DNA of 62,471 bases, counting the filler. It is 6 parts of 6 records of this genome, joined end to end, with 100 filler letters (N's around TTAATTAATTAA, not from the genome) between each part and the next. Parts side by side here need not be neighbours in the genome. Positions count along the whole stretch, not along the records: positions 53,859 to 62,471 come from SRR31156797_10623; 5 more parts are not named here. One strand, given 5' to 3'. Below, piece by piece: positions 4,701 through 62,471 of the stretch. The position numbers were made by a program, and so were the translations under genes. The first letter of the stretch is position 1; every line of letters begins with the position of its first letter. A model generated the notes under the pieces. That model made no database searches and was not told where the DNA came from. It was given only the letters and a program-made list of their open reading frames with translations.

Positions 4701-5564
4701 ATGACACTCACGAAAACCGGCGCGCCAGCCAAAACGATCAGCACCAGACTGCTGTCTGCCCTGATCATCTGGTTTTTATTTTTCACGCTCTGTTACGTTC
4801 TCCTCTTTTTAAAAGACGACCACCGCCAGGAAGAGCTGACCAAGAGCGGGATCTTTATATCAAAGGACATTGCAAGCCAGGCGGGCCTGCCCCTGCTCGA
4901 AAGGGACATAGATCGCCTGGGGGAACTTTTGAACGAGATTTCAGAGCGTCCCGGGGTGGTGTACGCCTCGATAATCGACCACAAAAACAAACTCATCGCC
5001 TACACGGACCAAAAGCAATTTTTAACCCTCAACCAGCGCGGATGGGATATCCTGGACGATGTCCAATACTCCAAGGCGATTGAAACAAACGATCGGACCG
5101 TGATCAACTTCTCTTCGGGCGTCACCTTTTCCGGGACCCGGATCGGAGAGGTCTTCATCTCCCTGGCAACCCGGAAGGTCACCGCGAAAAGACGGCTCTT
5201 CCTGGTGGCCGCGTTTTTATCCCTGACATCGATCATTGCGATATTTGTTACCTCCCGACAGGAGGCGGAACTGCCCCTGTGGATAAAGCTCAAGGCCCTG
5301 TTCCCCCCAAAGGAGGCTGCAAAGGAGGAGCCGGATCCGACACGTCTTGAAATCACCTGTCCCCTGTGCGGGGAAAAGAGCAGCGTTTCCTCAAAGGAGT
5401 TTGCACTGTTCAGCCTGAACCAGTTTCCAATTCTCAGGGCAACGACAGACGAAGAGAAACCAATTCTGTTGACCGATCTGAGCAAGGTCCGGGAGATGAC
5501 CTGGTTGAAACAAAGAATCGTGATGCAGTGTACTGAAATTATCAACAGACTCATCGCCAACTAA
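4701..5564 (+). CDS. Two-TM membrane protein with periplasmic sensor-like domain and cytoplasmic CxxC motif
   Basis: Two hydrophobic segments flank a domain resembling the kinase sensor (PLLERDI..ASIIDHK..IAYTD). CPLCG lies in the C-terminal part. Confidence 0.7.
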   Translation: MTLTKTGAPAKTISTRLLSALIIWFLFFTLCYVLLFLKDDHRQEELTKSGIFISKDIASQAGLPLLERDIDRLGELLNEISERPGVVYASIIDHKNKLIAYTDQKQFLTLNQRGWDILDDVQYSKAIETNDRTVINFSSGVTFSGTRIGEVFISLATRKVTAKRRLFLVAAFLSLTSIIAIFVTSRQEAELPLWIKLKALFPPKEAAKEEPDPTRLEITCPLCGEKSSVSSKEFALFSLNQFPILRATTDEEKPILLTDLSKVREMTWLKQRIVMQCTEIINRLIAN

Positions 5565-5578
5565 TCGGGAGAAAGTCA

Positions 5579-7207
5579 ATGTCCGTGACCGAAAAAGTAT
5601 CAACAACCATGACATGGGCAAAACAGGTGACAACCGGAACCTTCAAGAGTGTGACCGGCACCCTGCTGAAGAGCAGCTTCCTCAACAGGAACAAGAAGCC
5701 CCTGGCAATCTATGGGGCTGTGTGCCTGATCGCGGTGATCCTCTCCTGGCTCATGGTCCGCAGTGCCGCCACCGACTTTCGGCAGGAGTTCCTGAACAAA
5801 GCCGTTATCGCGGCAAATGCCATGGCGGAAAAGGTCCGCGCCCCCCTGCTGGAGAACGATATCCTGACCTTGAACGTGTCCATCGGTGAACTGGAAAAAA
5901 AGATCGCTCCGGTATTTGCGGGGATTCTGGACCATGAAGAGGTTGTCATAGCCCACAGCGACCCCGACGCCATGAACCTTAAGATGAAAGCGCCCGAAAA
6001 AACAAAAAAAATGGCCACCCTGAACGGGGTAACCGTGGAACAGGGAGTATTTCCCAAATATGGAAAAACCATCACCTTTTCCAAGGATCTCTTTTTCGCA
6101 ACGGTCAAGATCGGCACCCTTGTTTTCGGACTTGACGCCCAGATCCTTGCGAAGTCCAAGGCACGGTATCACCTGATACTCCTGGCCGTTCTGGTCCTGA
6201 TTTTCCTCATCTTCCTGATCCTGGTTTTCATAACCGACCGCCATCTCAGGAACAAGGCCGCCAAAGAACTTGAAGCCTTTGAAAATATGGAGAAGGTGGG
6301 GCCCTATATGTTGAAGAAAAAAATCGCCCAGGGCGGTATGGCCGAACTCTTTCTTGCCGACTACATCCGGGAGGACGGATTCAAGCGCACCGTTGCCATC
6401 AAAAAAATCCTGCCCCACCTGGCACAGAACCAGGACTTCGTTGCCATGTTCATCCGGGAGGCACGGCTTGCCGCCATGCTCCAGCATCCCAACATCGTCC
6501 AGATCTTTGACCTGATAAAATTGATGAACCTCCATTTCATTGCCATGGAGTATGTCAACGGAAAAACCCTGGCGGAAATCATGGCCCATGAGAAATCCGG
6601 GCTGCCCATGGACCTTGCCCTGTTCCTGATCCAGAAGATCAGCTCAGGCCTCGACTACTCCCACTCGAAAACCGATGACCAGACAGGAGCCCCCCTGAAC
6701 ATCGTCCACAGGGACATCAGTCCCCAGAACATGCTGATCTCCTTCAGGGGAGAGGTCAAAATCAGTGATTTTGGCATCTCCAAGGCCAGGAGTGAACCCA
6801 GTTTCACCCAGGCCGGGGTGATCAAGGGCAAAATTTCCTACCTCTCACCGGAGCAGGCCCTGGGCAAGGAGGTGGATCACCAGGCAGACATTTACGCCCT
6901 GGGCATCATCTTCCATGAGATTCTCACAGGAAAGCGGGTCTACAATTTCGCCAACGAACTGGAAGCCATTCGAACCATTCCCACCATTAAGATCCCGGCT
7001 GTAACGGAATTAAGGCCCGAACTGCCCCAAGCCCTGGCGGACATCATTGCCAAGTGCCTGGAAAAGAAAAAGGCCCGCAGATATCAGACGGCAAAAGAAC
7101 TCCATGACGACCTGGCAAGCCTGAAATCCGAACTTCAGATCTCGTTTGACGCAGCCAATCTTGCCGAGTTCATGGCCGAACGGTTTAAAGACGAGAACCC
7201 CTCCTGA
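5579..7207 (+). CDS. Membrane Ser/Thr (Hanks-type) protein kinase, TM-sensor-TM-kinase
   Basis: IAQGGMAEL, VAIKK, HPNIV, HRDISPQN, DFG, GKISYLSPEQ, DIYALG. Confidence 0.92.
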   Translation: MSVTEKVSTTMTWAKQVTTGTFKSVTGTLLKSSFLNRNKKPLAIYGAVCLIAVILSWLMVRSAATDFRQEFLNKAVIAANAMAEKVRAPLLENDILTLNVSIGELEKKIAPVFAGILDHEEVVIAHSDPDAMNLKMKAPEKTKKMATLNGVTVEQGVFPKYGKTITFSKDLFFATVKIGTLVFGLDAQILAKSKARYHLILLAVLVLIFLIFLILVFITDRHLRNKAAKELEAFENMEKVGPYMLKKKIAQGGMAELFLADYIREDGFKRTVAIKKILPHLAQNQDFVAMFIREARLAAMLQHPNIVQIFDLIKLMNLHFIAMEYVNGKTLAEIMAHEKSGLPMDLALFLIQKISSGLDYSHSKTDDQTGAPLNIVHRDISPQNMLISFRGEVKISDFGISKARSEPSFTQAGVIKGKISYLSPEQALGKEVDHQADIYALGIIFHEILTGKRVYNFANELEAIRTIPTIKIPAVTELRPELPQALADIIAKCLEKKKARRYQTAKELHDDLASLKSELQISFDAANLAEFMAERFKDENPS

Positions 7208-13653: not shown

Positions 13654-13753
13654 NNNNNNNNNNNNNNNNNNNNNNNNNNNNNNNNNNNNNNNNNNNNTTA
13701 ATTAATTAANNNNNNNNNNNNNNNNNNNNNNNNNNNNNNNNNNNNNNNNNNNN
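13654..13753. other. Artificial contig spacer
   Basis: N44-TTAATTAATTAA-N44 (stops in all six frames); GC content drops sharply across it. Confidence 0.98.
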
Positions 13754-32481: not shown

Positions 32482-32581
32482 NNNNNNNNNNNNNNNNNNN
32501 NNNNNNNNNNNNNNNNNNNNNNNNNTTAATTAATTAANNNNNNNNNNNNNNNNNNNNNNNNNNNNNNNNNNNNNNNNNNNN
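32482..32581. other. Artificial contig spacer
   Basis: N44-TTAATTAATTAA-N44. Confidence 0.98.
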
Positions 32582-39232: not shown

Positions 39233-39332
39233 NNNNNNNNNNNNNNNNNNNNNNNNNNNNNNNNNNNNNNNNNNNNTTAATTAATTAANNNNNNNNNNNN
39301 NNNNNNNNNNNNNNNNNNNNNNNNNNNNNNNN
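39233..39332. other. Artificial contig spacer
   Basis: N44-TTAATTAATTAA-N44. Confidence 0.98.
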
Positions 39333-48223: not shown

Positions 48224-48323
48224 NNNNNNNNNNNNNNNNNNNNNNNNNNNNNNNNNNNNNNNNNNNNTTAATTAATTAANNNNNNNNNNNNNNNNNNNNN
48301 NNNNNNNNNNNNNNNNNNNNNNN
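48224..48323. other. Artificial contig spacer
   Basis: N44-TTAATTAATTAA-N44. Confidence 0.98.
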
Positions 48324-50364: not shown

Positions 50365-52689
50365 TCAGATCCTGTTCTGGGAAAAATCGCGGATAAAGTT
50401 CAGGGCGTCCGGCTCTCCCAGCGGTTTGCTGAAGTAGTATCCCTGAAAAATCCGACAGCCCATTTTCATCAGGCTTTCCAGCTGGTCCTTGTCTTCCACC
50501 CCTTCTGCGACCGACAGGAGAGAGAAGGTTTCGGCCAGAGAGATGATCATCTTTACCACCTGATGCTCCCTCCCCTCCAGCACGATCCTGTCTACGAAGC
50601 TCTTGTCCACTTTCATGATATCGATGGGAAGCATGGTCAGATAGTTCAGGGAAGAGTAACCCGTGCCGAAGTCGTCCAGATAGATCAGGACCCCCCTCTC
50701 CCTGAAGCGTACCAGCTGCTCGATCACAAAGTCTTTGTTCTCCATAACCGCCGTTTCGGTGATCTCAATCCCGATCATCCTGGGAGGGATCCTCATCTCG
50801 TCCAGGATCCTGAAAAAGGACTCATAGAATCCCGAGTTCAGAAGCTGTACGGCCGAGACGTTGACGGAAACCCGAAAATCCTCCAGGTCTCCGTAAAAAG
50901 CCCTTACCCTCTGCAGGAAGCGGCAGGACTCCTCAATGACAAACTCTCCCAGAGCATTGATCAGCCCAGACTGTTCCGCCAGCAGGATGAACTCGTCGGG
51001 AGGGATGAAACCGAGCCGCGGGGAGTTCCATCGAATCAGGGCCTCAAAGCCTATCACCCTGGAAGCCAGGGGATCCACCTTGGGCTGGAAGTTCAGATAG
51101 AACTCCTTCCTGACGATGGCTTCCTCCATCTCGTTCATTATCTCAAGATGACGCTGCATCTCGCTCTTCAGATCCTCGCTGTAGACGCAGACCCCGTTCT
51201 TACCCCTCTCCTTGGCCTTGTACATGGCGATTTCCGCCTTCTTGATCAGACCGTCGCCGCTGTTGTCGGCATCGGAGATATAGGCAAGGCCGAGGCTGAA
51301 GTTCAGACGGATCTCGATATCGTCCATGGAGAAAGAAGCGATATCCCTCTGCAACCTCTTGAAGAACTGGTTTTCATCCACCACCGTATCCAGATAGAGG
51401 GCGAAGATATTTCCGCTGAGACAGCTGACGGCCTTTATATAGGAGTCCGTCTTCTCTCTGAGAAGGGTTCCCACCTTGCTCAGGATGCGGTCCCCCGTCT
51501 CATAGCCGAAGGAATCGTTAAAGAAGCGGAAGTTGTCAATGTCCAGAATGGCCACACAGGAAACGAAGAAGCCCTCCCGGTTCTCCTCGATGTAGTTCAC
51601 CAGGGACTGACGATTCATCAATCCCGTAAGGTTATCCTTGTAGGCAGAATCGTATATCCTGCGGGATTGTTCATACTCCCTGCTTGTGTCCCGTATCACG
51701 ATGATCTGATGGACAGCGCCGTCCTCGACGGAGCTGTAATTTCTGACGGAGAGGCGCAGGCGTTTTCTCTCCCCCTTGAGCAGATAGAAGATCTCTTTCT
51801 CCGCTTCGCTCAGCTTCTGCGCTTTCAGCTCCGCCCAGATCCCCATCACCTCAACCGACTCTTCGGGAGCCAGATGGGACTCGAATTTCCTGTCCAGCTC
51901 CTCCATGGAGGAAGTGCTGAAACCCAGTATATCCTTGCTCCGGGGAGACATGAGAACGCTGTTCTCTTTCTGGTTGATATCGACGATGCCGTCCTCCGAC
52001 AGCTCCAAAACCTTTTCCAGGCGCTCAGTTTCAGCCCGGTACTGGGTATTCAGGCCGGAGATCTCATCCAGATGCCGTGAAATCGCCGCGATCTTTGAAT
52101 CCAGCAGCCTCTCGTGTTTTCTGTAGAGGCGGAATGCCAGAAGGCTGATCACATAGGCCGTGAGAAGGGAGACGAAAGAACCGATGTAAAATCCGGCGTT
52201 CAGAGAGGGACCGGAGGCGGGATGGAGCCAGAAGGAGTAGAGGATAAGGCAAAGGTATAATCCGCAGAGGATGGAAAGAGAAACGGTTCTGTAATTGACA
52301 TTGACTGAGATGAGAAAGGCCGTAAAGAAAACACCCATAAGGACATAGCCGTGCTCCAGGGTCAGATACTGCTGAAGGATGACCACAACGATGATGAAGG
52401 CGAAAAAAGCATGGTTCCTCAACTCCGGTTTTACGCCCAGACGTTTAAGAAGTACATGCACGAGGGTCATCAATCCCAGAGAACCGTTCCCCAGGATATA
52501 AACAAGATGTTTGTACGATCCGGCCAGCTCCGCGTAGTGGATGGTCACGGCCAACAGGATATTGACAAGTATGAGTGATAAAAGCTGAATTCGATAGTAA
52601 TAATGGAGGCGTTCCTCTCTGAGAACGCTTCCTTCATCCGGATTACCGGGCATATTATGAAATTCTCCATTCAGTTTTAGTTCTGTCAT
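50365..52689 (-). CDS. Membrane PAS-GGDEF(degenerate)-EAL c-di-GMP phosphodiesterase
   Basis: About 6 N-terminal TM; GGDEF replaced by SGNIF; FEALIRW, IEITE, DDFGTGYSS, VAEGVE intact. Confidence 0.88.
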   Translation of the reverse strand: MTELKLNGEFHNMPGNPDEGSVLREERLHYYYRIQLLSLILVNILLAVTIHYAELAGSYKHLVYILGNGSLGLMTLVHVLLKRLGVKPELRNHAFFAFIIVVVILQQYLTLEHGYVLMGVFFTAFLISVNVNYRTVSLSILCGLYLCLILYSFWLHPASGPSLNAGFYIGSFVSLLTAYVISLLAFRLYRKHERLLDSKIAAISRHLDEISGLNTQYRAETERLEKVLELSEDGIVDINQKENSVLMSPRSKDILGFSTSSMEELDRKFESHLAPEESVEVMGIWAELKAQKLSEAEKEIFYLLKGERKRLRLSVRNYSSVEDGAVHQIIVIRDTSREYEQSRRIYDSAYKDNLTGLMNRQSLVNYIEENREGFFVSCVAILDIDNFRFFNDSFGYETGDRILSKVGTLLREKTDSYIKAVSCLSGNIFALYLDTVVDENQFFKRLQRDIASFSMDDIEIRLNFSLGLAYISDADNSGDGLIKKAEIAMYKAKERGKNGVCVYSEDLKSEMQRHLEIMNEMEEAIVRKEFYLNFQPKVDPLASRVIGFEALIRWNSPRLGFIPPDEFILLAEQSGLINALGEFVIEESCRFLQRVRAFYGDLEDFRVSVNVSAVQLLNSGFYESFFRILDEMRIPPRMIGIEITETAVMENKDFVIEQLVRFRERGVLIYLDDFGTGYSSLNYLTMLPIDIMKVDKSFVDRIVLEGREHQVVKMIISLAETFSLLSVAEGVEDKDQLESLMKMGCRIFQGYYFSKPLGEPDALNFIRDFSQNRI

Positions 52690-53758: not shown

Positions 53759-53858
53759 NNNNNNNNNNNNNNNNNNNNNNNNNNNNNNNNNNNNNNNNNN
53801 NNTTAATTAATTAANNNNNNNNNNNNNNNNNNNNNNNNNNNNNNNNNNNNNNNNNNNN
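53759..53858. other. Artificial contig spacer
   Basis: N44-TTAATTAATTAA-N44. Confidence 0.98.
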
Positions 53859-53859
53859 A

Positions 53860-55425
53860 AAAGATTCTAACCTTATTGGTCAATTTGGAGTAGGGTTTTA
53901 TTCTGTATTTATGGTAGCTGATAAAGTAGATGTTATCTCGAAGAGAGCTGGTGAAGAGCAAGCATACAAATGGTCAAGTGATGGATCAGGTGAGTTTGAT
54001 TTAGCACCTTGTGTAAAAGATGAAAGTGGTACAGTTATCTACATCAAACTAAAAGAAGATGAAGTGAGTGATTATACTGGAAAGTTTAGAGTAGAAAATA
54101 TTGTAAAAAAATATTCTAACCATATTGCGTATCCAATTTTCTTAAACTATTCAGAGGAAGTAACTGAAGAGTTAAGTGAAGAAGATAAAGAAGCTGGGAA
54201 AGAGCCTGCGAAAACAATTGAGAAAAAAAGAGAACAGATCAATGAAGCAACGGCACTTTGGACACTACCTAAATCAAAAGTAAAACCTGAAGAGTATGTG
54301 GAGTTTTATAAAACTATCTCTCATGATTCTGAAGAGCCAATGCTTCACGTTCATACAAAAGCTGAGGGTGTAAATGAGTATACTACATTATTCTATATCC
54401 CAGCAAAAGCTCCAATGGATATGTATAGAGTAGATTATCAACCAGGTGTAAAGCTTTATGTAAAAAGAGTATTTATCACTGACGATGAGAAAGAGTTACT
54501 TCCAACATATCTTCGATTTGTAAGAGGTATTATAGACTCGGAAGATCTTCCACTAAATGTAAGTAGAGAGATCTTACAAGAAAATAGAATTATGGCAAAT
54601 ATTAAGCAAGGTTCTGTGAAAAAGATTTTAGGTGAGATTAAAAAGCTTTCTAAAGATGAAGAAAAATATGAAAAATTCATCACTGAGTATAATAGACCTT
54701 TAAAAGAAGGTTTATACCAAGATTATACAAATAAAGATGCTATTTTAGAGCTTGTAAGATATAAATCTACAAATGATGAAGCAAAAATGACTTCATTAGC
54801 AGCATATAAAGAGAGAGCTGATAGTGAACAAAAAGCGATCTATTATATCGTAGGGGAAGATGAAAAAGTTCTTAGAAACTCTCCACTCCTTGAAGCGTAT
54901 AAGAAAAACAATATTGAAGTACTTATTTTAGATGATAAAGAGATCGATGAGATTGTAACACCAGCAATTGGTGCATACCAAGAGTGGGATCTCAAAGATA
55001 TCACTTCGTGTGAAGCTCCAAAGACTGAGCAAACAGAAGAAGAGAAAAAAGAGGTAGAGGAGAAATTCAAATCTATCGTTGAGAAAGTAAAAGAAAAGCT
55101 TGGTGAGTCTGTAAAAGAGGTAAAAACTACAAATAGACTAAGTGATTCTCCATCTTGCGTTGTAAAAGATGCAAACGATCCTATGGCTTCAATGGCGCAT
55201 ATGTTTAGACAAATGGGACAAGAGATGCCAGAGTCTGCACCAATCTTAGAGATCAATCCAGATCATGAGATCGTTCAAAAATTAAATGGATGTGAAGATG
55301 ATGCTATGATCGATGATGTAGCATGGTTACTTCTTGATCAAGCAAAAATGAGTGAAGGTATGGAGATTAAAGATCCAGTTAGCTTTACAAAACGATTAAA
55401 TCGTGTAATGGCGAAGTCTTTCTAA
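53860..55425 (+). CDS. htpG: Chaperone HtpG (Hsp90), 5' partial
   Basis: LIGQFGVGFYS, KLYVKRVFI, IDSEDLPLNVSRE, ILEINPDH. Confidence 0.96.
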   Translation, partial: KDSNLIGQFGVGFYSVFMVADKVDVISKRAGEEQAYKWSSDGSGEFDLAPCVKDESGTVIYIKLKEDEVSDYTGKFRVENIVKKYSNHIAYPIFLNYSEEVTEELSEEDKEAGKEPAKTIEKKREQINEATALWTLPKSKVKPEEYVEFYKTISHDSEEPMLHVHTKAEGVNEYTTLFYIPAKAPMDMYRVDYQPGVKLYVKRVFITDDEKELLPTYLRFVRGIIDSEDLPLNVSREILQENRIMANIKQGSVKKILGEIKKLSKDEEKYEKFITEYNRPLKEGLYQDYTNKDAILELVRYKSTNDEAKMTSLAAYKERADSEQKAIYYIVGEDEKVLRNSPLLEAYKKNNIEVLILDDKEIDEIVTPAIGAYQEWDLKDITSCEAPKTEQTEEEKKEVEEKFKSIVEKVKEKLGESVKEVKTTNRLSDSPSCVVKDANDPMASMAHMFRQMGQEMPESAPILEINPDHEIVQKLNGCEDDAMIDDVAWLLLDQAKMSEGMEIKDPVSFTKRLNRVMAKSF

Positions 55426-55630
55426 GACTTCCCATAAAAGTCTTAAAAAGTTACTTTCTTTTATAGAAATAGTAATATTAAATCATTATTTTTATATTCT
55501 TACCTATACTAAACACTATATTTTATAGGAAATAATAGTTATTAATATCTCTTTTTTTCTCATTTTAGTCTTTAAAAAGTAGTAAATTTATTTTACTTTA
55601 AGCTTACTAGTGTCATAATTCGAATAGTTA

Positions 55631-55712
55631 AATTGTTAAAGCCAAACTTATCGCGAGGTAAGGACGGAAAGCCACGGGTCTTTTGAGAAAAGACAGCCGA
55701 GTTACCAAAATA
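55631..55712 (+). ncRNA. c-di-GMP-I (GEMM) riboswitch, copy 1
   Basis: GCCAAAC-TTATC-GCGA-GGTAA-GGACGGAAAGCCACGGGTC...GACAGCCGAGTTACC matches the GEMM P2/P3 consensus. Confidence 0.88.
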
Positions 55713-55821
55713 GATCTTTTGATATCTCATATATCAAAGTATTTCAACTCGACACATTTCTTAAAAATCATTTTTCGTATTATTTTAACAGTTTAGGTTT
55801 TTTCAATTAATTGTTGAATTG

Positions 55822-55900
55822 TTTTTATTGCCAAACCTATTGCGAGATAGGGACGGAAAGCCACGGGTCTTTTAAAGAAAAGATAGCCGAGTTGCATAAA
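55822..55900 (+). ncRNA. c-di-GMP-I (GEMM) riboswitch, copy 2
   Basis: GCCAAAC-CTATT-GCGA-GATAG-GGACGGAAAGCCACGGGTC...GATAGCCGAGTTGC; P1 TTTAT/ATAAA. Confidence 0.88.
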
Positions 55901-56024
55901 TATATTGAGAAGAATTCTCTTCTTTGTAAATATATTTTTCTAAACCGCTATATCCCTTTAAATACTTTCCTGTGACATAAATCAATTTTAAATCTACATT
56001 GATAGATATTTTAAGGAGCATGTC

Positions 56025-56207
56025 ATGTTAGAGTTTTTAAAAAGAAGATTAAGAAGTGAAAAAGGTGCGATGGATAAAGTTATCGTAACTTTACTGTTAG
56101 TTGTTGTTGGTGCTATTGCAGTTGTTGGATTAAGTGGTTGGGTAACAGGAGAGTCTGCAAATATTCAGACTGCAGCTGAAACACAAATTACGAATGCTGG
56201 TGGTTGA
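56025..56207 (+). CDS. flp: Flp-type pilin with non-canonical N-terminus
   Basis: 60 aa; basic leader RRLRSEKG|A then a hydrophobic helix; AAGGAG RBS; first gene of a tad locus. Confidence 0.75.
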   Translation: MLEFLKRRLRSEKGAMDKVIVTLLLVVVGAIAVVGLSGWVTGESANIQTAAETQITNAGG

Positions 56208-56230
56208 TTTATAGCCTAATAGTATATATG

Positions 56231-56254
56231 AGCAGCCTTTAAAAGGCTGCTTTT
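56231..56254 (+). terminator. Intrinsic terminator/stabiliser after the pilin gene
   Basis: AGCAGCCTT-TAA-AAGGCTGCT-TTT. Confidence 0.75.
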
Positions 56255-56268
56255 GTAAGGTTGCAGCG

Positions 56269-56706
56269 ATGTTTAGTTTTTCTTTTTATCTTTTTGGATT
56301 TATTCTTTCATATTTAGATTTCAAATATTTTAAAGTACCAAATATCTTAGTTTTAACGTGTTTCATATTTTTACTTTTTTTTGGATTTATTGAACAACAG
56401 TTAAATATCTATTCATTCGTGATAGCTATTTTAGTGTTGTTTTTCTTTATTGTAATACTTTTATTACAGCCTAAAATGATACTAGGTGGTGGGGATATCA
56501 AATATATAATGTTGGTTGCATTATATCTTGATCCATTTGACTTCCCTTATTTTTTAATAATAACAGGGATCTTACAAACTGTATTTTTACTTTTTAAACA
56601 ACAAGTTTGTAAAAGACGAACCGCTCCTATGGTTCCAGTGATTTTCTTATCAGTAATAGTGAGTGAAGTATTAGTTTTTTGGGATTTGATTCCAGTAAAG
56701 GTGTAA
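56269..56706 (+). CDS. Prepilin peptidase (A24, TadV/CpaA-like)
   Basis: SYLDF..VPN and LGGGDIK catalytic aspartates; no methylase domain. Confidence 0.82.
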   Translation: MFSFSFYLFGFILSYLDFKYFKVPNILVLTCFIFLLFFGFIEQQLNIYSFVIAILVLFFFIVILLLQPKMILGGGDIKYIMLVALYLDPFDFPYFLIITGILQTVFLLFKQQVCKRRTAPMVPVIFLSVIVSEVLVFWDLIPVKV

Positions 56707-56709
56707 GTT

Positions 56710-57735
56710 ATGAAAAGAGCATTTGTTGATAAAATAATGTTAGGTTTTTTACTACTAGCAGGTGTTTTTGTTTTTATATCAACAAATGTCGATGATATTA
56801 GTGTAAGAAATAAACTTCTTAGTCTTAAAAAACTTACAGATGCTACAGCTTTAGGTTTAGCAAACCATTACATTGATAATCTAGATACTAATACAGCTGA
56901 AACTATAATGAATGATATATTAGATGAGAGCTCTTTAGGACAAGATGCAAAAGCATATATGAGTTTTTCTTGGGATCTTGTCAGTGATCCAAAAAATGTA
57001 ACCGTCACTATTACAAACTATGTGCATAATACCTTTTGGTATCGATTTTTATCAAAAGATGAGTTTATCTTTGAACATATAGAATCAAAAGCAAATATTG
57101 AATTACTCCCTGCAAATACTCTTCCTATAATTGATGAAGTATCAGATTTTATGCCATTTGCAGTAAATGAATGTGGACAAGATGATGGTTTTCATATAGG
57201 AGATAGTTTTTCATTTATTTATAAATCATACGGTATTTATGAAGCGGATGAGAGTTTAGGTTTTTATGGAATCTCTCCTAATGATCCAGATCCAAGAGCT
57301 GGGGATCAAAGTGATTTTGCCCACTTTAAAAATGAGGTATATGACTTTAATAGAGTTGATAATACGCAATATCTAGTGGATACTATTCAAGAGACCATAG
57401 AAAATGATGCTCAACAACTAGCAAGTGCTTTAGAGATCCATAAGTTTGAAGACCCTATGAGTATTAGTATAGCTATATTAGACTGTAGTAGTACCAAAGA
57501 TAATATCATTATATCTTCGTTGCTTCCAGTAAATATGACAAATATCTATTGTGGAGATAAAACAACTTCGACTACGAATATTGATCAAGCTTTTAGTGAT
57601 CAAACAGGGGAAGTTTTTGAAAATATCAATTGGGTTGAATGGGTTGAGAGTAAAGATTGTTCACAAAGTGGTTTATTTAGAATTGATGTTGATGTAAGAG
57701 CTCCTGAAGTAGAGACGGCAGTATTAGAGTATTAA
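56710..57735 (+). CDS. TadG-like pilus assembly protein
   Basis: N-terminal TM then D.....RNKL..L..TDATAL Tad motif; PFAVN; Cys-containing C-terminal domain. Confidence 0.6.
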   Translation: MKRAFVDKIMLGFLLLAGVFVFISTNVDDISVRNKLLSLKKLTDATALGLANHYIDNLDTNTAETIMNDILDESSLGQDAKAYMSFSWDLVSDPKNVTVTITNYVHNTFWYRFLSKDEFIFEHIESKANIELLPANTLPIIDEVSDFMPFAVNECGQDDGFHIGDSFSFIYKSYGIYEADESLGFYGISPNDPDPRAGDQSDFAHFKNEVYDFNRVDNTQYLVDTIQETIENDAQQLASALEIHKFEDPMSISIAILDCSSTKDNIIISSLLPVNMTNIYCGDKTTSTTNIDQAFSDQTGEVFENINWVEWVESKDCSQSGLFRIDVDVRAPEVETAVLEY

Positions 57736-57743
57736 AAGGATTG

Positions 57744-59327
57744 ATGATGACGTTAGAACAATATAATTCACAAATTCATGAACAAAAAGAGATTCTGTTA
57801 TTAGAAGAGAGTTTACAAGAGAGTTTAAAATATTTTGTTTTATTTTCAAATATTGAAGAGCTTTCATTTTTTCAATATGATTATGAACTCAATCAGTATG
57901 ATTATAGATATAGTGTAAATTCTTTAGAAGAGTTTCAAAAAACTGATGTAGATATGGAAAGTTTTGAATTTACTCTAATTATTGAAAATGAGAATAATAC
58001 GTTTGGAATAATCGCTTTTAATAAAAAACCTGAGAAAACTGAGATTGTAGAAAAGCTTTTATTGAAAATTAGAGAAAATCTACACAAACTTTTTTTAGTA
58101 AGACAGCAATTAATCTTAGAAGATACTGCTAAAACTGATATCTATCTTATTTCAGATGAATCTTCAAAAGAGTTTACAAGAAAGCTTAAAAATAGTCTTA
58201 AAGTGATCATCAATTCTGAACTTAAAGTGATCAAAGATATAAGAGATATATTAGCTCAGCTTAAAACAAAAACAAAAAAATCTGTTTTGATTTATCTTGT
58301 TGAAGATGAAGAGTTAATTCAAAAAGATGAAGAGATATTAAAACAGATCAATGAGTTTTTAATTGTGATTGGTCCAACCAACTTTGATCTTTCACTTTAT
58401 TGTGGGCAATTACAAGTTTATAAATATCTCTCAAAAGATCATTTTATCCCAGAGCAGATCAAAACTATTTTGAATGAATTAAAAAATAAAGTACAAAATA
58501 AATATCTTCATACTAATAAGATCATTACATTAGCAGGAATTTCAGGTGGAGTTGGAACTACAACTATTGCTATGAATCTAGCAAATTTACTATCTCAAAA
58601 AAATAGTGAGAAAAATGTCTTATATATTGATCTTTCACAAACAAAAGCGATTAGTAATCTTTTTTTAGAACAAAACCCAATGCCAAAAAAAACAATTATT
58701 GATCTTGTAAATAGTTCAAGTTTTGATATAGAAAAAAATCTTGAAAATGGATTAGTAAAAGTAAAAGAGAATTTTTATGCAATCAATGGGATACAAAAAC
58801 ATATCGATAGTGATTATTTAGAACAAGAGGTATTTATAGAAAAGTTTTTAGAATACCTTTCAAAAATGGGAGAAAGTTTTAATTATATTATTATTGATAC
58901 TGGTGAAGCAACCGCTACACCTCTTAAATCAACTCTTTATGATATCTCCAATGATCTTTGGATCCTCACAGAGATGACACTTCCTCATATCTCAAAACTG
59001 AAAACATTTTTCTCTTTGATGAAAAGAGCAGGGTTAAAAGATAAATTGACATTTTTAGTAAATCGTTATGATTCTGCTTTTGCTATATCAGTTTCAGATG
59101 TGATCTCTATTTTAAATACAGGAAATGATGAACATCTAAATTTTGATCATAAAATACCAAATGATTATGAAAAGCTTGGATATTGTTGGAACTATTGCGA
59201 ACTAGTTACCAACTCCTATCCAAGCTCACCATTTGTAGAGGTTTTAACGCAACTTCTTTATAAAAAAGAGCTGATTGAAAAAGAGGTTGTAAAAGTAAAA
59301 ACAAAAACCTTTTTTTCACTTTTTTAA
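57744..59327 (+). CDS. TadZ/CpaE-like ParA/MinD ATPase with long N-terminal extension
   Basis: SGGVGTTTIAMNLA, VLYIDL, YIIIDTG, VNRY, IPNDY. Confidence 0.78.
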   Translation: MMTLEQYNSQIHEQKEILLLEESLQESLKYFVLFSNIEELSFFQYDYELNQYDYRYSVNSLEEFQKTDVDMESFEFTLIIENENNTFGIIAFNKKPEKTEIVEKLLLKIRENLHKLFLVRQQLILEDTAKTDIYLISDESSKEFTRKLKNSLKVIINSELKVIKDIRDILAQLKTKTKKSVLIYLVEDEELIQKDEEILKQINEFLIVIGPTNFDLSLYCGQLQVYKYLSKDHFIPEQIKTILNELKNKVQNKYLHTNKIITLAGISGGVGTTTIAMNLANLLSQKNSEKNVLYIDLSQTKAISNLFLEQNPMPKKTIIDLVNSSSFDIEKNLENGLVKVKENFYAINGIQKHIDSDYLEQEVFIEKFLEYLSKMGESFNYIIIDTGEATATPLKSTLYDISNDLWILTEMTLPHISKLKTFFSLMKRAGLKDKLTFLVNRYDSAFAISVSDVISILNTGNDEHLNFDHKIPNDYEKLGYCWNYCELVTNSYPSSPFVEVLTQLLYKKELIEKEVVKVKTKTFFSLF

Positions 59328-59337
59328 AGGATAATAG

Positions 59338-60933
59338 ATGAGAAGTTTAAAAGATATTATTGAGTTTCATGAAAGTCAAGGTTCTAAAGATGATGATATT
59401 CAAGCAAACATTGTACAAAATGATAGTTTGAGTGAAAATAAAACAAAAATACAAAAGATACAAAAAAAACGTTTTAGTGAAGTATTGAAATTTCCAGATA
59501 TCTATGTTCATGAAGAGATGCTTGAACTCACTTATAAAGTATATGATCAGTTCTTACTCAATCTAAAATCTGATAAAAAAATCACAAAAGATAGTTTAGA
59601 TGAAGTATTACCTGAGTTTATCTTAAGTTTTGCAGAGTGTAGAACCCTTTCAAAAGAGCAACTTGATGATATAAAACAGTATATAACTCATAATATCATA
59701 GGACTAGGAGTAATAAGTACTATTTTTGAACTTGCGGGAGATGGTCTAAATGATGTGATCGTGAATACAAAAGACTATGTAGATATTATTTATAATGGTC
59801 AAACTCTAGAGACTCCTATGAAATTTAGAAGTGAAGAGGAGCTTCGAAAAATAATTGATAAGATGCTTGCTCAAAATAATAGAAAGATAGATGAAGCTCA
59901 TCCTATTATTTCAAGTAAACTACAAGATGGATCTCGTGTGGAGGTGCAAATCCCTCCAATTGCTGCAAATGGTGGAAGCTGTGTAACTATCAGAAAATTT
60001 AACGATCTTCCACTTTTATTAGAAACCCTTATTGATACAGAGCAGATGGATTATAAAATGGCATATTTCCTTTTAAAACTTGCAAAAGGGAAATGTAATG
60101 TGATCGTCTCAGGGGGTACTTCTAGTGGTAAAACTACCTTTTTAAATGCGGTCACACGATTTATCGATGATAATGAACAGCTTATGGTAATCGAAGATAC
60201 CAAAGAGATGCAGCCTCAGATGCCATGTCACCTTGTAAGATCTTATGAAGCAAGGATGGCAAATGAAGAGGGGAAAGGGGCTATCACTTTAGATTTTCTA
60301 CTCCGTTCAGCTCTTCGTTCAAGTCCAAGACGGATCATAGTCGGGGAGTGTAGGGGACCAGAAATTGTTGTAATGCTTAATGCTATGAATACAGGTCACC
60401 CTGGATCTATGACCACGGTGCATGCTGATGATACAAAAGAGGCTTTGGTAAGGGTAGAAAATATGTATTTAGAAGCTAGACCAACAGCAAGCATCAATTT
60501 TATCCGTTCTCAAATTGTCTCAGCTATTGATGTGATCATCCAGCTAGTACGTTTCCCTGATGGTACAAGAAAAATCATTACCATATCTGAAGTGGAGAAG
60601 AGAATGGAAGATAATGGAGTGATCTCTTTAAATCATATCTTTAAGTTTGAAAGGGATACCGAAGATCTAAAAAGTACAAAAGGGGAGTTTAAAGCAATAG
60701 CAGCTCCTAGTAGAACTATTGATCAGATGAATATGTTTGGAGTTGATCTTGATAAAAGGATTTTTAATCCAGAGTTTGAGATGACAAAAGAGATGCTTAT
60801 TGAAGAGCTTCGAAAAGATCTTCCATCTAAAATGTGTGGATGGAAAGATACTCATATTGATCAGTACCTTAGACGTGATCCTGAGCTTTTTCATAAGTGG
60901 CCGCACTTTCAAGAGATTGAAACAAAGGATTAA
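59338..60933 (+). CDS. tadA: Tad pilus assembly ATPase (TadA/CpaF)
   Basis: DGSRV..IPP, TIRKF, GGTSSGKTT, IEDTKE, IIVGECRG, AMNTGHPGSMTTVHA. Confidence 0.92.
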   Translation: MRSLKDIIEFHESQGSKDDDIQANIVQNDSLSENKTKIQKIQKKRFSEVLKFPDIYVHEEMLELTYKVYDQFLLNLKSDKKITKDSLDEVLPEFILSFAECRTLSKEQLDDIKQYITHNIIGLGVISTIFELAGDGLNDVIVNTKDYVDIIYNGQTLETPMKFRSEEELRKIIDKMLAQNNRKIDEAHPIISSKLQDGSRVEVQIPPIAANGGSCVTIRKFNDLPLLLETLIDTEQMDYKMAYFLLKLAKGKCNVIVSGGTSSGKTTFLNAVTRFIDDNEQLMVIEDTKEMQPQMPCHLVRSYEARMANEEGKGAITLDFLLRSALRSSPRRIIVGECRGPEIVVMLNAMNTGHPGSMTTVHADDTKEALVRVENMYLEARPTASINFIRSQIVSAIDVIIQLVRFPDGTRKIITISEVEKRMEDNGVISLNHIFKFERDTEDLKSTKGEFKAIAAPSRTIDQMNMFGVDLDKRIFNPEFEMTKEMLIEELRKDLPSKMCGWKDTHIDQYLRRDPELFHKWPHFQEIETKD

Positions 60934-61874
60934 TGATGAATACTGAAATTTTAATTTTTTTCTTTATCTTTTTAGTTCCTTTTATAGTGATCACTTTAGG
61001 GTACTTTTTATATCAATACTACATCCAATCAAATAAAACAAAAATGATGATCAATGTTTTATCTGATGCCTCTCATCATATTATTGATAATAAAAAACAA
61101 AGGGAATCTAAAAAAGTAAAAACAGCCAATATAATCAAAAAAAAGCTCAATCATGCAGGGTTTTTATACGATTATGCAGAATATGTTTTTTATTTTATCT
61201 CTTTAGGTTTTGGACTTTTAGCTGGGATATTTATTTTTATAGTGATGGAATCTACGATCGCTTTAGTGATCTCTTCTATTGTTTTCTCTTCTTTTCCTTA
61301 TATAGTTTTAGAAAAAATAATAGCTACTCGTCAAGAGGAGTTTAATTTTGGTCTAAAAGCGATTATCGATAAAGTGACTAGTATGATGAGAAGTGGAGTA
61401 GGGTTTGAGCAGTCTTTTAAAAAATCTATCCTTACAAGCAAATCAAAACTAACTAAAGAGATCCTTGATATCTATCTCAATGAAAAAGATATTATCGGAG
61501 AAGAGAAAGCGTTTGAAAAGATGTTTCAACTTGTAGAATCTAAAGAGTTTAGAATCTTTTATCTCACTATCACCATAGGAAGACAATCGGGAGGAAAGTT
61601 TTCAAATACTTTAGAGACTTTACGAAAAACACTTCATGATCAAGGAACTATCAAACAAGAGATCATCTCTTCTACAAGAGAGATAAAAATAGGAACGTAT
61701 ATGATTATTGTATTAACTGTTAGTATTTATCTAATGGTTAATGGAGTATTCGAAGGTGCTTTAAATAGCCATTTTTTTGGAACATCGGATGGGAAACTAC
61801 AGATGTTCTTTATAATCATTTGGGTGGCATTTGGTTTATTTGTAAACAATATGCTTACCAAGATCAAAGGATAA
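60933..61874 (+). CDS. tadB: Tad inner-membrane platform protein (T2SSF)
   Basis: SMMRSG.GF, GRQSGGKFSNTLE; directly after tadA. Confidence 0.8.
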   Translation: MMNTEILIFFFIFLVPFIVITLGYFLYQYYIQSNKTKMMINVLSDASHHIIDNKKQRESKKVKTANIIKKKLNHAGFLYDYAEYVFYFISLGFGLLAGIFIFIVMESTIALVISSIVFSSFPYIVLEKIIATRQEEFNFGLKAIIDKVTSMMRSGVGFEQSFKKSILTSKSKLTKEILDIYLNEKDIIGEEKAFEKMFQLVESKEFRIFYLTITIGRQSGGKFSNTLETLRKTLHDQGTIKQEIISSTREIKIGTYMIIVLTVSIYLMVNGVFEGALNSHFFGTSDGKLQMFFIIIWVAFGLFVNNMLTKIKG

Positions 61875-61877
61875 GTT

Positions 61878-62471
61878 ATGTGGTATATTATTATATTTGC
61901 TCCAATGGTTTTGATTCTAACAATTGTAGGGGGATTTTATCTTTTCAAAAGATATAAAAGATCAAAAAATATTATTTTACTCTCAAAACTTGATGTAACA
62001 GGGATAGTAAATCAGCAAAAAAGGATTCAAACTTCCCCTTCAAAAGATACTTTAGGAACAAAACTGATCCAAGCAGGAATCACTCTAAAAGAATATAATG
62101 AAGCAAGATTTTTATTTATGATCATTGGTTTAGTTATTATAGGAGTAATACCGTTTTTTACCCCTTTAAAAGTAGGACTTGGTGCTATTATTGTAGGACT
62201 TGTTTTTATCATCTTTGGTGGAAAAATATATCTCTCCATAGCAAAATCTGAGAGGGTAGAAAAAATAGATCGAGATCTTGGAACTTTTTTAGACCTAGTA
62301 AATGTGATCTTAGAAGCGGGTGGAAGTTTAAAAAATGCATTTTTTACCGTTTCTAAAAGAGGTGATAAGATCATTGATGAAGAGCTTTTAAAAGAGATTG
62401 CTATCTTAGAGTATGAGATGACAAACTATAGTACCAAACAAGCCTATGAAAATTTAAAAAATAGAGTTGAT
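61878..62471 (+). CDS. tadC: TadC-like T2SSF protein (3' partial; absent from the ORF track)
   Basis: MWYIIIFAPM...KLIQAG...RVEKIDRDLGTFLDLVNVILEAGGSLKNA; runs off the window end. Confidence 0.78.
   Translation, partial: MWYIIIFAPMVLILTIVGGFYLFKRYKRSKNIILLSKLDVTGIVNQQKRIQTSPSKDTLGTKLIQAGITLKEYNEARFLFMIIGLVIIGVIPFFTPLKVGLGAIIVGLVFIIFGGKIYLSIAKSERVEKIDRDLGTFLDLVNVILEAGGSLKNAFFTVSKRGDKIIDEELLKEIAILEYEMTNYSTKQAYENLKNRVD

Follow-up and report, generated by a model that had tools for sequence, protein, structure and literature searches.

Two c-di-GMP-I riboswitch aptamers in one leader ahead of an flp-like pilin gene of a Tad-like locus

In a stretch of 62,471 nt made up of six joined contigs (hereafter the window), we found two riboswitch aptamers of the c-di-GMP-I (GEMM) type arranged in tandem in the intergenic region between htpG and an flp-like prepilin gene, which is the first gene of a Tad-like pilus locus. 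The aptamers are very likely sensors of cyclic di-guanosine monophosphate (c-di-GMP) that act on flp. Overall, the region was read as a single leader in which two c-di-GMP-I units, both of them ON switches, would stand in series before flp, and this composite reading has in our estimate about an even chance of being correct. The arrangement is genuine, but a rather ordinary instance of a design that is already established.

Two aptamers of the c-di-GMP-I type

Scanning the whole window against Rfam with cmscan gave exactly two matches above the gathering score, both on the plus strand and both to RF03167 (c-di-GMP-I-GGC; clan CL00126; gathering score 59 bits): aptamer 1 at 55632-55710 (67.8 bits, E = 6.5e-14) and aptamer 2 at 55821-55900 (59.8 bits, E = 1.3e-11), the latter exceeding the gathering score by 0.8 bits only. 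The same two aptamers were recovered when a 1-kb region was rescanned. With a start-to-start distance of 189 nt and a mean column identity of 91%, they agree with the initial annotation, which had described two similar GEMM aptamers 189 bp apart between htpG and flp. Their likeness is confined to the core, where 57 of 64 bases are identical, and ends at the aptamer edges. In neither is a conserved core letter or a core pair lost, and both carry the AAA linker and a GCGA loop on hairpin 1. The minimum free energy fold of aptamer 1 alone is the two-hairpin GEMM shape (-15.2 kcal/mol), and that of aptamer 2 alone is likewise the GEMM shape (-15.6 kcal/mol). The joining strand beside the pocket is AAAG in one aptamer and AUUG in the other, a difference that could shift aptamer affinity.

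To evaluate the fold, the two window aptamers were compared with eight from related flp loci, each of which carries a single aptamer (see below). Across these 10 aptamers, 93.8% of 241 pair cells were kept, compared with 88.8 ± 1.3% in shuffles (none of 500 reached the observed value), and only 31-54% of cells were paired when the partners were slid. Changes on both sides were found in 8 of 25 pairs, a count that was reached by 49 of 500 shuffles. Three open reading frames (ORFs) of 45-54 amino acids (aa) overlap the aptamers and have no support; we take them as chance frames.

The GGC label notwithstanding, we read the window aptamers as being of the ordinary c-di-GMP-I type. At the hairpin junction, the consensus is GACGCGAAgCc in RF03167 and GACGCAAAgCc in RF01051 (GEMM-I), so that the sole core difference between the two models is a G for A at model position 37, and the window aptamers read GACGGAAAGCC. 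Position 37 is A in both of them as well as in all eight relatives, the G of the GGC model being absent, and the aptamers were therefore filed as ordinary c-di-GMP-I. The letter that is changed in the window aptamers is the pair partner one position before it, C46 to G, which is compensated on the other strand by G21 to C. This flipped C-G pair beside the pocket was found in 10 of 10 aptamers of the flp family, the partner was C in 69 of the 73 aptamers collected in a metagenome scan (see below), and the pair is, judging from these alignments, a common natural form. The pocket letters G, A and C stand at model positions 10, 37 and 75 in both window aptamers; we take these positions to be G20, A47 and C92, which contact the ligand, in the numbering of Vc2 of Vibrio cholerae, presumably the type example of RF01051, and we assume from the Vc2 structures that A47 stacks between the two guanines of the ligand.

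The alternative, that the aptamers represent a c-di-GMP-I-GGC class sensing a ligand other than c-di-GMP, draws on RF03167 being the best family for both, but the A kept at position 37 and the scores of the relatives make it highly improbable. All 17 homologous aptamer places in five relatives' genomes match RF01051 at 49.4-70 bits (gathering score 35 bits) and RF03167 at 47-71 bits, 11 of them above 59, and the orthologous aptamer of locus L004 was called RF01051 at 49.4 bits. Because the relatives score about equally on both models, the GGC label appears to be a near-tie settled by clan competition, the Rfam scan reporting only the best match per clan and leaving three lower-scoring same-clan matches undisplayed. 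The meaning of the GGC variant is taken here from a comparison of two Rfam consensus lines, and no ligand was given for it in the literature found to name the variant. For annotation, the case shows that clan competition can give the RF03167 label to aptamers without the distinguishing base of the model.

Promoter, expression platforms and sign of the switch

A promoter-like motif of the extended -10 type, TAAG-N8-TGnnAnAAT, was found on the plus strand at 55599-55619, 12 nt upstream of aptamer 1. The 62-kb window holds no other match; 0.30 are expected by chance, and one or more turned up in 26 of 100 shuffles. A sigma-70 scan reports a site that ends at 55619, TTTACT-16-CATAAT, and that has a TG. 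The motif was derived from the leaders of relatives, and occurs 7-18 nt upstream of the aptamer in all but one of the eight relatives with a single aptamer (L007, L008, L020, L023, L026, L036 and L037). It also lies 26 nt upstream of flp in three riboswitch-less relatives that were left out of the derivation (L011, 1663-1683; L012, 5490-5510; L013, 5524-5544). Taken together, these positions are good evidence that the motif serves as the flp promoter and that the aptamers were placed into the stretch separating it from the gene. No second copy of the motif was found downstream of either aptamer in the window scan.

This evidence bears on an alternative that we consider unlikely, in which transcription of flp mainly starts downstream of 55900, one aptamer or even both being a relic or bypassed and the leader elements mattering little. 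Such a start could be provided by a weaker promoter-like site at 55972-56000, GTGACA-17-TACATT, which has 9 of 12 matches in a generic scan. Moreover, 18 of 26 related flp regions function without an aptamer, eight of which hold no Rfam family over 118,602 bases, and two long leaders share a GACACA direct repeat, about 11 nt apart, near flp (L007, ~1780-1810; L008, ~5250-5280), which is possibly bound by a regulator that acts 3' of the aptamer. However, generic promoter-like sites are no commoner in the AT-rich leader than in shuffles (5 versus 4.4 ± 1.9), the conserved motif stands solely upstream of aptamer 1, and the full retention of core letters and core pairs in both aptamers is unexpected for a relic. 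A weak hint in the same direction is one 251-nt contig of a relative in an RNA-library run (X7), which covers 55911-56135 at a depth of 3.3 and, although not proof of transcription, extends at least 114 nt upstream of the flp ATG and so past the downstream site.

In the mechanism that we propose, a single mRNA would begin a few bases after the motif at 55599-55619, and its leader of approximately 400 nt would carry both units. Each aptamer would bind c-di-GMP, and binding would lock the second helix, P2; in the ligand-free state, P2 would instead be taken into a long alternative hairpin that terminates or disables the transcript, which would make both units ON. The alternative hairpin would be 55677-55769 in unit 1, directly followed by U5, and 55866-55966 in unit 2, including a hairpin (T2) and its U5. 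RNA polymerase would have to pass two independent checkpoints, and pilin would be steeply raised only at high c-di-GMP, while the assembly genes would be expressed by read-through of a hairpin located 3' of flp. A layout of this kind was read as ON in the accessible part of an earlier GEMM study (Weinberg et al., 2007; PMC1950547). For the ON direction as such, the chances seem to us evenly balanced.

The elements that this mechanism would require were located on the plus strand as follows. In unit 1, a strand at 55745-55769 is complementary to P2 of aptamer 1 (55677-55703) and is followed by U5 at 55771-55775; the composite hairpin 55677-55769 reaches -17.8 kcal/mol (z-score -2.0; 8 of 200 shuffles as good) and excludes the aptamer. 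Between the two partner strands lies T1 (55712-55744; stem 55717-55725/55731-55739), a weak, AU-rich hairpin followed by UAUUUC (-5.8 kcal/mol; z -1.9; 9 of 200 shuffles as good). In unit 2, a strand at 55942-55966 is able to pair with P2 of aptamer 2, and the composite hairpin 55866-55966 has -21.4 kcal/mol (z -3.1), which is mostly owed to T2 (55898-55937; -10.1 kcal/mol; z -3.2; none of 200 shuffles as good); T2 ends in U5 at 55935-55939 and shares its first three bases with the 3' end of aptamer 2. In five relatives (L026, L020, L023, L060 and L007; z -2.3 to -3.0), the 3' part of the aptamer likewise pairs with sequence further downstream better than shuffles do. In L026, whose aptamer (6633-6713; the same place as L047) has U for C at the C92 place, the partner of one ligand guanine, a compensatory change was found: the U is matched downstream by UACAAC rather than UGCAAC.

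Several observations weigh against this ON reading. A consensus scan for terminators over 55400-56300 was empty, as anticipated by the initial annotation, which saw no strong terminator after either aptamer; a canonical GC-rich terminator-type hairpin is present on the same contig, after flp, unlike the weak hairpins of the leader. The duplex between P2 and the downstream strand is marginal in unit 1 (-15.2 kcal/mol; z -1.5; matched by 9% of shuffles) and no better than chance in unit 2 (-10.1 kcal/mol; z 0.0; matched by 45% of shuffles). T1 and T2 are predicted to form whether or not the aptamer is forced, so that, if they are terminators, they are not obviously controlled by the ligand. Forcing the aptamer also lowered the accessibility of the Shine-Dalgarno sequence in 7 of 9 leaders, clearly in L026 (0.74 to 0.34) and L036 (0.91 to 0.25), where none of 25 shuffled linkers fell as far. 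In addition, the membership of the window aptamers in RF01051 rests, owing to clan competition, on relatives and alignment, and the X7 contig is the only RNA evidence.

The drop in accessibility supports the opposite sign, in which the same sensors with the same ligand would turn the pilin OFF, a possible if somewhat doubtful alternative. Two routes are conceivable: the bound aptamers may leave T1 and T2 free to terminate, or a pyrimidine-rich strand (55952-55964 in the window) may be freed to pair with the ribosome-binding site. The latter is illustrated by L026, in whose predicted bound fold a CUUC...ACA strand pairs with GGAG and AUG, and the changes in L026 and L036 point to OFF in those relatives. 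In the window, whose Shine-Dalgarno sequence AAGGAG (56013-56018, plus strand, read from sequence) lies 6 nt upstream of the flp ATG, the change is only -0.10, inside the shuffle range (16% as low); L020 changes in the opposite direction (+0.17), L008 is unchanged, and unit 1, being some 300 nt away from the ribosome-binding site, cannot affect translation directly. The termination route is favored by the U-rich run after each of T1 and T2, neither of which overlaps P2, and by a possible anti-terminator of T1, in which 55703-55710 pairs with 55717-55724 at 7 of 8 positions; this pairing, however, is weaker than T1, and no counterpart was found for T2. As general knowledge, adhesion factors are also more often induced than repressed by c-di-GMP. 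Taken over all, thermodynamic modelling of free versus aptamer-forced folds gave no consistent window-specific direction. The leader of a flagellin-like gene, L070, was tried as a presumed OFF reference and proved uninformative. If OFF is true, pili would be made in the low-c-di-GMP, surface-seeking state and stopped after attachment.

Mixed logic would arise if the two units had opposite signs or clearly different thresholds, acting as a band-pass filter, an arrangement that we regard as very far from probable. At that same remote level, unit 1 might be an anti-termination ON switch, its alternative hairpin overlapping P2 and being followed by U5, and unit 2 might lower expression at high c-di-GMP through T2 or the strand pairing with the ribosome-binding site; the cell would in that case make pilin only at intermediate c-di-GMP, as it changes from swimming to attachment. 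We know of no natural same-ligand tandem with band-pass logic. None is described in the accessible part of a survey of tandem riboswitches (Sherlock et al., 2022; PMC9481103).

Related loci and the origin of the tandem

Searching with the TadA protein of the window found 40 Campylobacterota loci at 64-87% identity, mostly from Arcobacteraceae, Aliarcobacter and Halarcobacter, together with three distant gammaproteobacterial ones. The closest relatives of the locus are metagenome-assembled genomes of Arcobacteraceae and other Campylobacterota. The initial description of a Campylobacterota-like genome is thus upheld for the contig 53859-62471, but not for the rest of the window, which is composite. 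For comparison of the leaders, we used the 26 of the 40 loci that have flp directly before the peptidase gene and more than 100 nt upstream. Search models made from the aptamers detected one aptamer before flp in eight of them (L004, L007, L008, L020, L023, L026, L036 and L037), and two aptamers before flp were found in none of the 26. The window aptamers are 0.82 identical to each other versus 0.60-0.77 to the eight relatives, and because they are closest to each other we interpret the tandem as a duplication, specific to this lineage, of the aptamer found singly in relatives. The flp gene is accordingly found behind one promoter type with zero, one or two aptamers, a series that offers a natural comparison for what the second aptamer adds.

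Two related loci show other arrangements. In L035, the closest relative of the locus, an ORF for a 200-aa protein with a cyclic-nucleotide-binding domain (4795-5397) lies between htpG and flp, in the place taken by the riboswitches in the window. L036/L045 has a single aptamer followed by two consecutive flp-like genes (62 and 61 aa).

Aptamers of this type were further surveyed in 151 sampled genomes of the family, 53 of which carry at least one, with 86 matches when the table is summed. Only one same-strand pair within 300 nt was found in these 151 genomes, and it stands at another gene (L044, ~1340-1590; G003:C18), before a 133-aa secreted-looking protein; a third aptamer, on the opposite strand, lies about 140 nt upstream of this pair. 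Among the best 30 loci of the survey, the first ORF is flp-like in seven, two of which are already known places and one of which has the L020 leader. In the others, the aptamer precedes small membrane proteins, a flagellin-like gene and further genes. Three gene kinds were noted: a family of proteins of 51-60 aa that share a WSF-x-KK motif and end in a hydrophobic tail (L049, L050, L058, L064, L065, L066 and L072), a family of proteins of about 80 aa with an N-terminal membrane segment (L046, L051, L052 and L071), and the flagellin-like gene (L070).

Metagenomic data were also inspected. In run X1, which may be the sample that the window comes from, another contig of 1704 nt (record 3) carries an aptamer core and an flp-like start with 100 other letters between them, representing either a second flp locus or another organism that has one aptamer. 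In the mat metagenome X3, contigs of a close relative cover 55539-55774 and 55813-56575 and none bridges the two, which only suggests that the tandem is conserved in this relative. A scan of metagenomes with a 23-base aptamer core returned 72 loci (L074-L145) with 73 aptamers. In 5 of the 73, an A replaces the G at the G20 place, a change that we take to be known from variants sensing cyclic AMP-GMP (c-AMP-GMP). The scan contained three same-strand tandems (L079, L085 and L101), which lack the leader of the window beyond the aptamer and have no flp-like ORF as judged by motif; since these tandems are unlike the window leader, they provide no covariation for the platform.

The Tad-like locus and its relation to known systems

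The six contigs of the window are joined by five 100-nt linkers of N's around a stop-codon spacer (13654-13753, 32482-32581, 39233-39332, 48224-48323 and 53759-53858). Their GC contents fall into two groups, approximately 0.52-0.55 and 0.31-0.32, and at least two kinds of genome are mixed in the window. Gene neighborhood across linkers is therefore meaningless, and the sequence to the left of 53759 is not a neighbor of the riboswitches; a gene for a 774-aa GGDEF-EAL protein (50365-52689, minus strand) was for this reason rejected as one, lying on another contig with 53% GC. The riboswitch contig is the last one (53859-62471; 8613 nt; GC 0.31) and equals in length the run X1 contig in which the whole stretch was found. 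Both htpG on its 5' side and tadC on its 3' side are cut by its ends. The 3' part of htpG (53860-55425; Pfam HSP90, E = 3.3e-116) encodes 504 aa compared with 634 aa in L035, of whose HtpG residues 114-634 match 53860-55422 in tblastn; the idea that the short gene is a pseudogene was thus rejected, since the contig start cuts it.

All genes of the locus are on the plus strand, and ORF and Pfam analysis supported the annotated order htpG, flp, peptidase, tadG-like, tadZ, tadA, tadB and tadC. The flp-like gene (56025-56207) encodes a 60-aa prepilin and is the first gene of the locus in the 26 related loci as well. The prepilin has a basic leader ending in KG, followed by AMDKV and a hydrophobic stretch, and lacks E at +5 and Y at +6. 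No Flp model in Pfam or NCBIfam matched it at an E-value of 0.01, and a weak match to DUF7248 (16.5 bits) stayed below the cut-off of 27. Homologues of the pilin numbered 134 (59-105 aa), none with a Pfam domain and all unnamed or bearing automatic names. The initial claim that the riboswitches control a Tad/Flp pilus locus is consequently borne out by Pfam for the Tad-like character of the locus, whereas the pilin lacks the Flp signature.

Directly 3' of flp, a GC-rich terminator-like hairpin was predicted on the plus strand (56230-56252, followed by UUGU; -17.3 kcal/mol for 56215-56268, z -2.3), which is probably an attenuator setting the ratio of pilin to machinery and which shows that standard terminators are in use in this organism. 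In consequence of this hairpin, the switch would act first on the pilin, and would extend to the assembly genes only through read-through. The notion of a c-di-GMP-gated attachment switch thus holds as regards the sensor-type aptamers, the single leader and the Tad-like genes downstream, but flp is the only gene that clearly stands behind the switch.

The genes downstream of flp are, as predicted from their products, a diverged Tad-like pilus locus. They begin with an A24 prepilin peptidase of 145 aa (56269-56706), whose peptidase domain is its only Pfam match (PF01478, E = 1.5e-10). Next comes a 341-aa protein (56710-57735) with an N-terminal hydrophobic segment like the mature end of the pilin; it has no match in Pfam or NCBIfam, and 22 of its 30 ESM Atlas feature matches are PF13400 Tad clusters (score 0.94, 181 shared features), which we treat as a lead only to a TadG-like protein. 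A TadZ/CpaE-like ParA-type ATPase of 528 aa (57741-59327; AAA_31, CBP_BcsQ and CbiA) and a TadA-type secretion ATPase of 531 aa (59338-60933; T2SSE, E = 4.5e-44) follow, the best NCBIfam match of the latter being TIGR03819 at 232 bits against a cut-off of 373. The platform proteins are a TadB-like one (60933-61874; T2SSF, E = 7.2e-09) and a TadC-like one that is cut by the contig end (61878-62471), is 52-73% identical to relatives and has a homologue in L035 (11533-12369) carrying T2SSF. The NCBIfam equivalog scores of the Tad components are all below the cut-offs. In L035, the genes after tadC include those for an SAF/CpaB-like protein and for a Secretin protein (E = 3.2e-37).

Known Tad/Flp (type IVc) loci include flp-tadV-rcpCAB-tadZABCDEFG of Aggregatibacter and pilA-cpaA-F of Caulobacter, and Flp prepilins are processed at a G/xxxxEY motif. 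With these the present locus shares a small prepilin, a short A24 peptidase, TadG-like and TadZ-like proteins, TadA and two T2SSF proteins; further downstream, in the relative L035, there are also a CpaB/SAF-like protein and a secretin. The locus differs in its gene order, with the secretin genes after tadC, in a pilin without the G/xxxxEY signature and in scores that for most components stay below the NCBIfam cut-offs. Among riboswitches, a c-di-GMP-II element is known before pilA1 of Clostridioides difficile. Our literature search found nothing on c-di-GMP riboswitches or on Tad regulation in Arcobacteraceae, no description of the present design in Arcobacter or Campylobacterota, and nothing on riboswitches with Tad pili as judged by titles and abstract openings of the papers listed. 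The find would put the pilin gene of a Tad-like pilus that is common in Arcobacteraceae, a group of environmental and animal-associated Campylobacterota, under a direct c-di-GMP input at the RNA level; how such switches are known to work is unchanged by it.

In the two-hairpin fold, the AAA linker and the pocket letters G, A and C, the window aptamers are like GEMM-I (RF01051). They are also alike in the GYRA loop (GCGA) without a receptor and in the bulged A near the base of hairpin 2, as far as GEMM-I is described in the accessible part of its report (PMC1950547). They differ from GEMM-I in the C-G pair beside the pocket, where the consensus has G-C, in the short, AU-rich outer closing helix and in having no canonical terminator after either aptamer. 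With regard to tandems, the available text of the 2007 report gives a third of deltaproteobacterial GEMM copies as tandem (PMC1950547), and that of the later survey counts 347 c-di-GMP-I doublets and 12 triplets, cites the triple tandem of Bacillus thuringiensis and expects a steeper, more digital response from tandem aptamers (PMC9481103). Compared with the tandems described there, the window is alike in having two same-class aptamers that share a leader, with a hairpin and a U-run behind each, and differs in belonging to Arcobacteraceae, where tandems are seemingly rare, and in its weak, AU-rich putative platforms. GEMM elements before cpaA, pilM/O/Q, pulF and other pilus genes were already listed in 2007 (Weinberg et al., 2007; Table 2 of PMC1950547, from the accessible part). 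Because both tandem GEMM and GEMM before pilus genes have been published, the region is less unusual than the initial annotation implied. Like those elements, as far as the report's accessible part describes them, it has a c-di-GMP-type leader ahead of a type IV filament cluster; it differs in its target, the pilin of a Tad-like locus in Campylobacterota.

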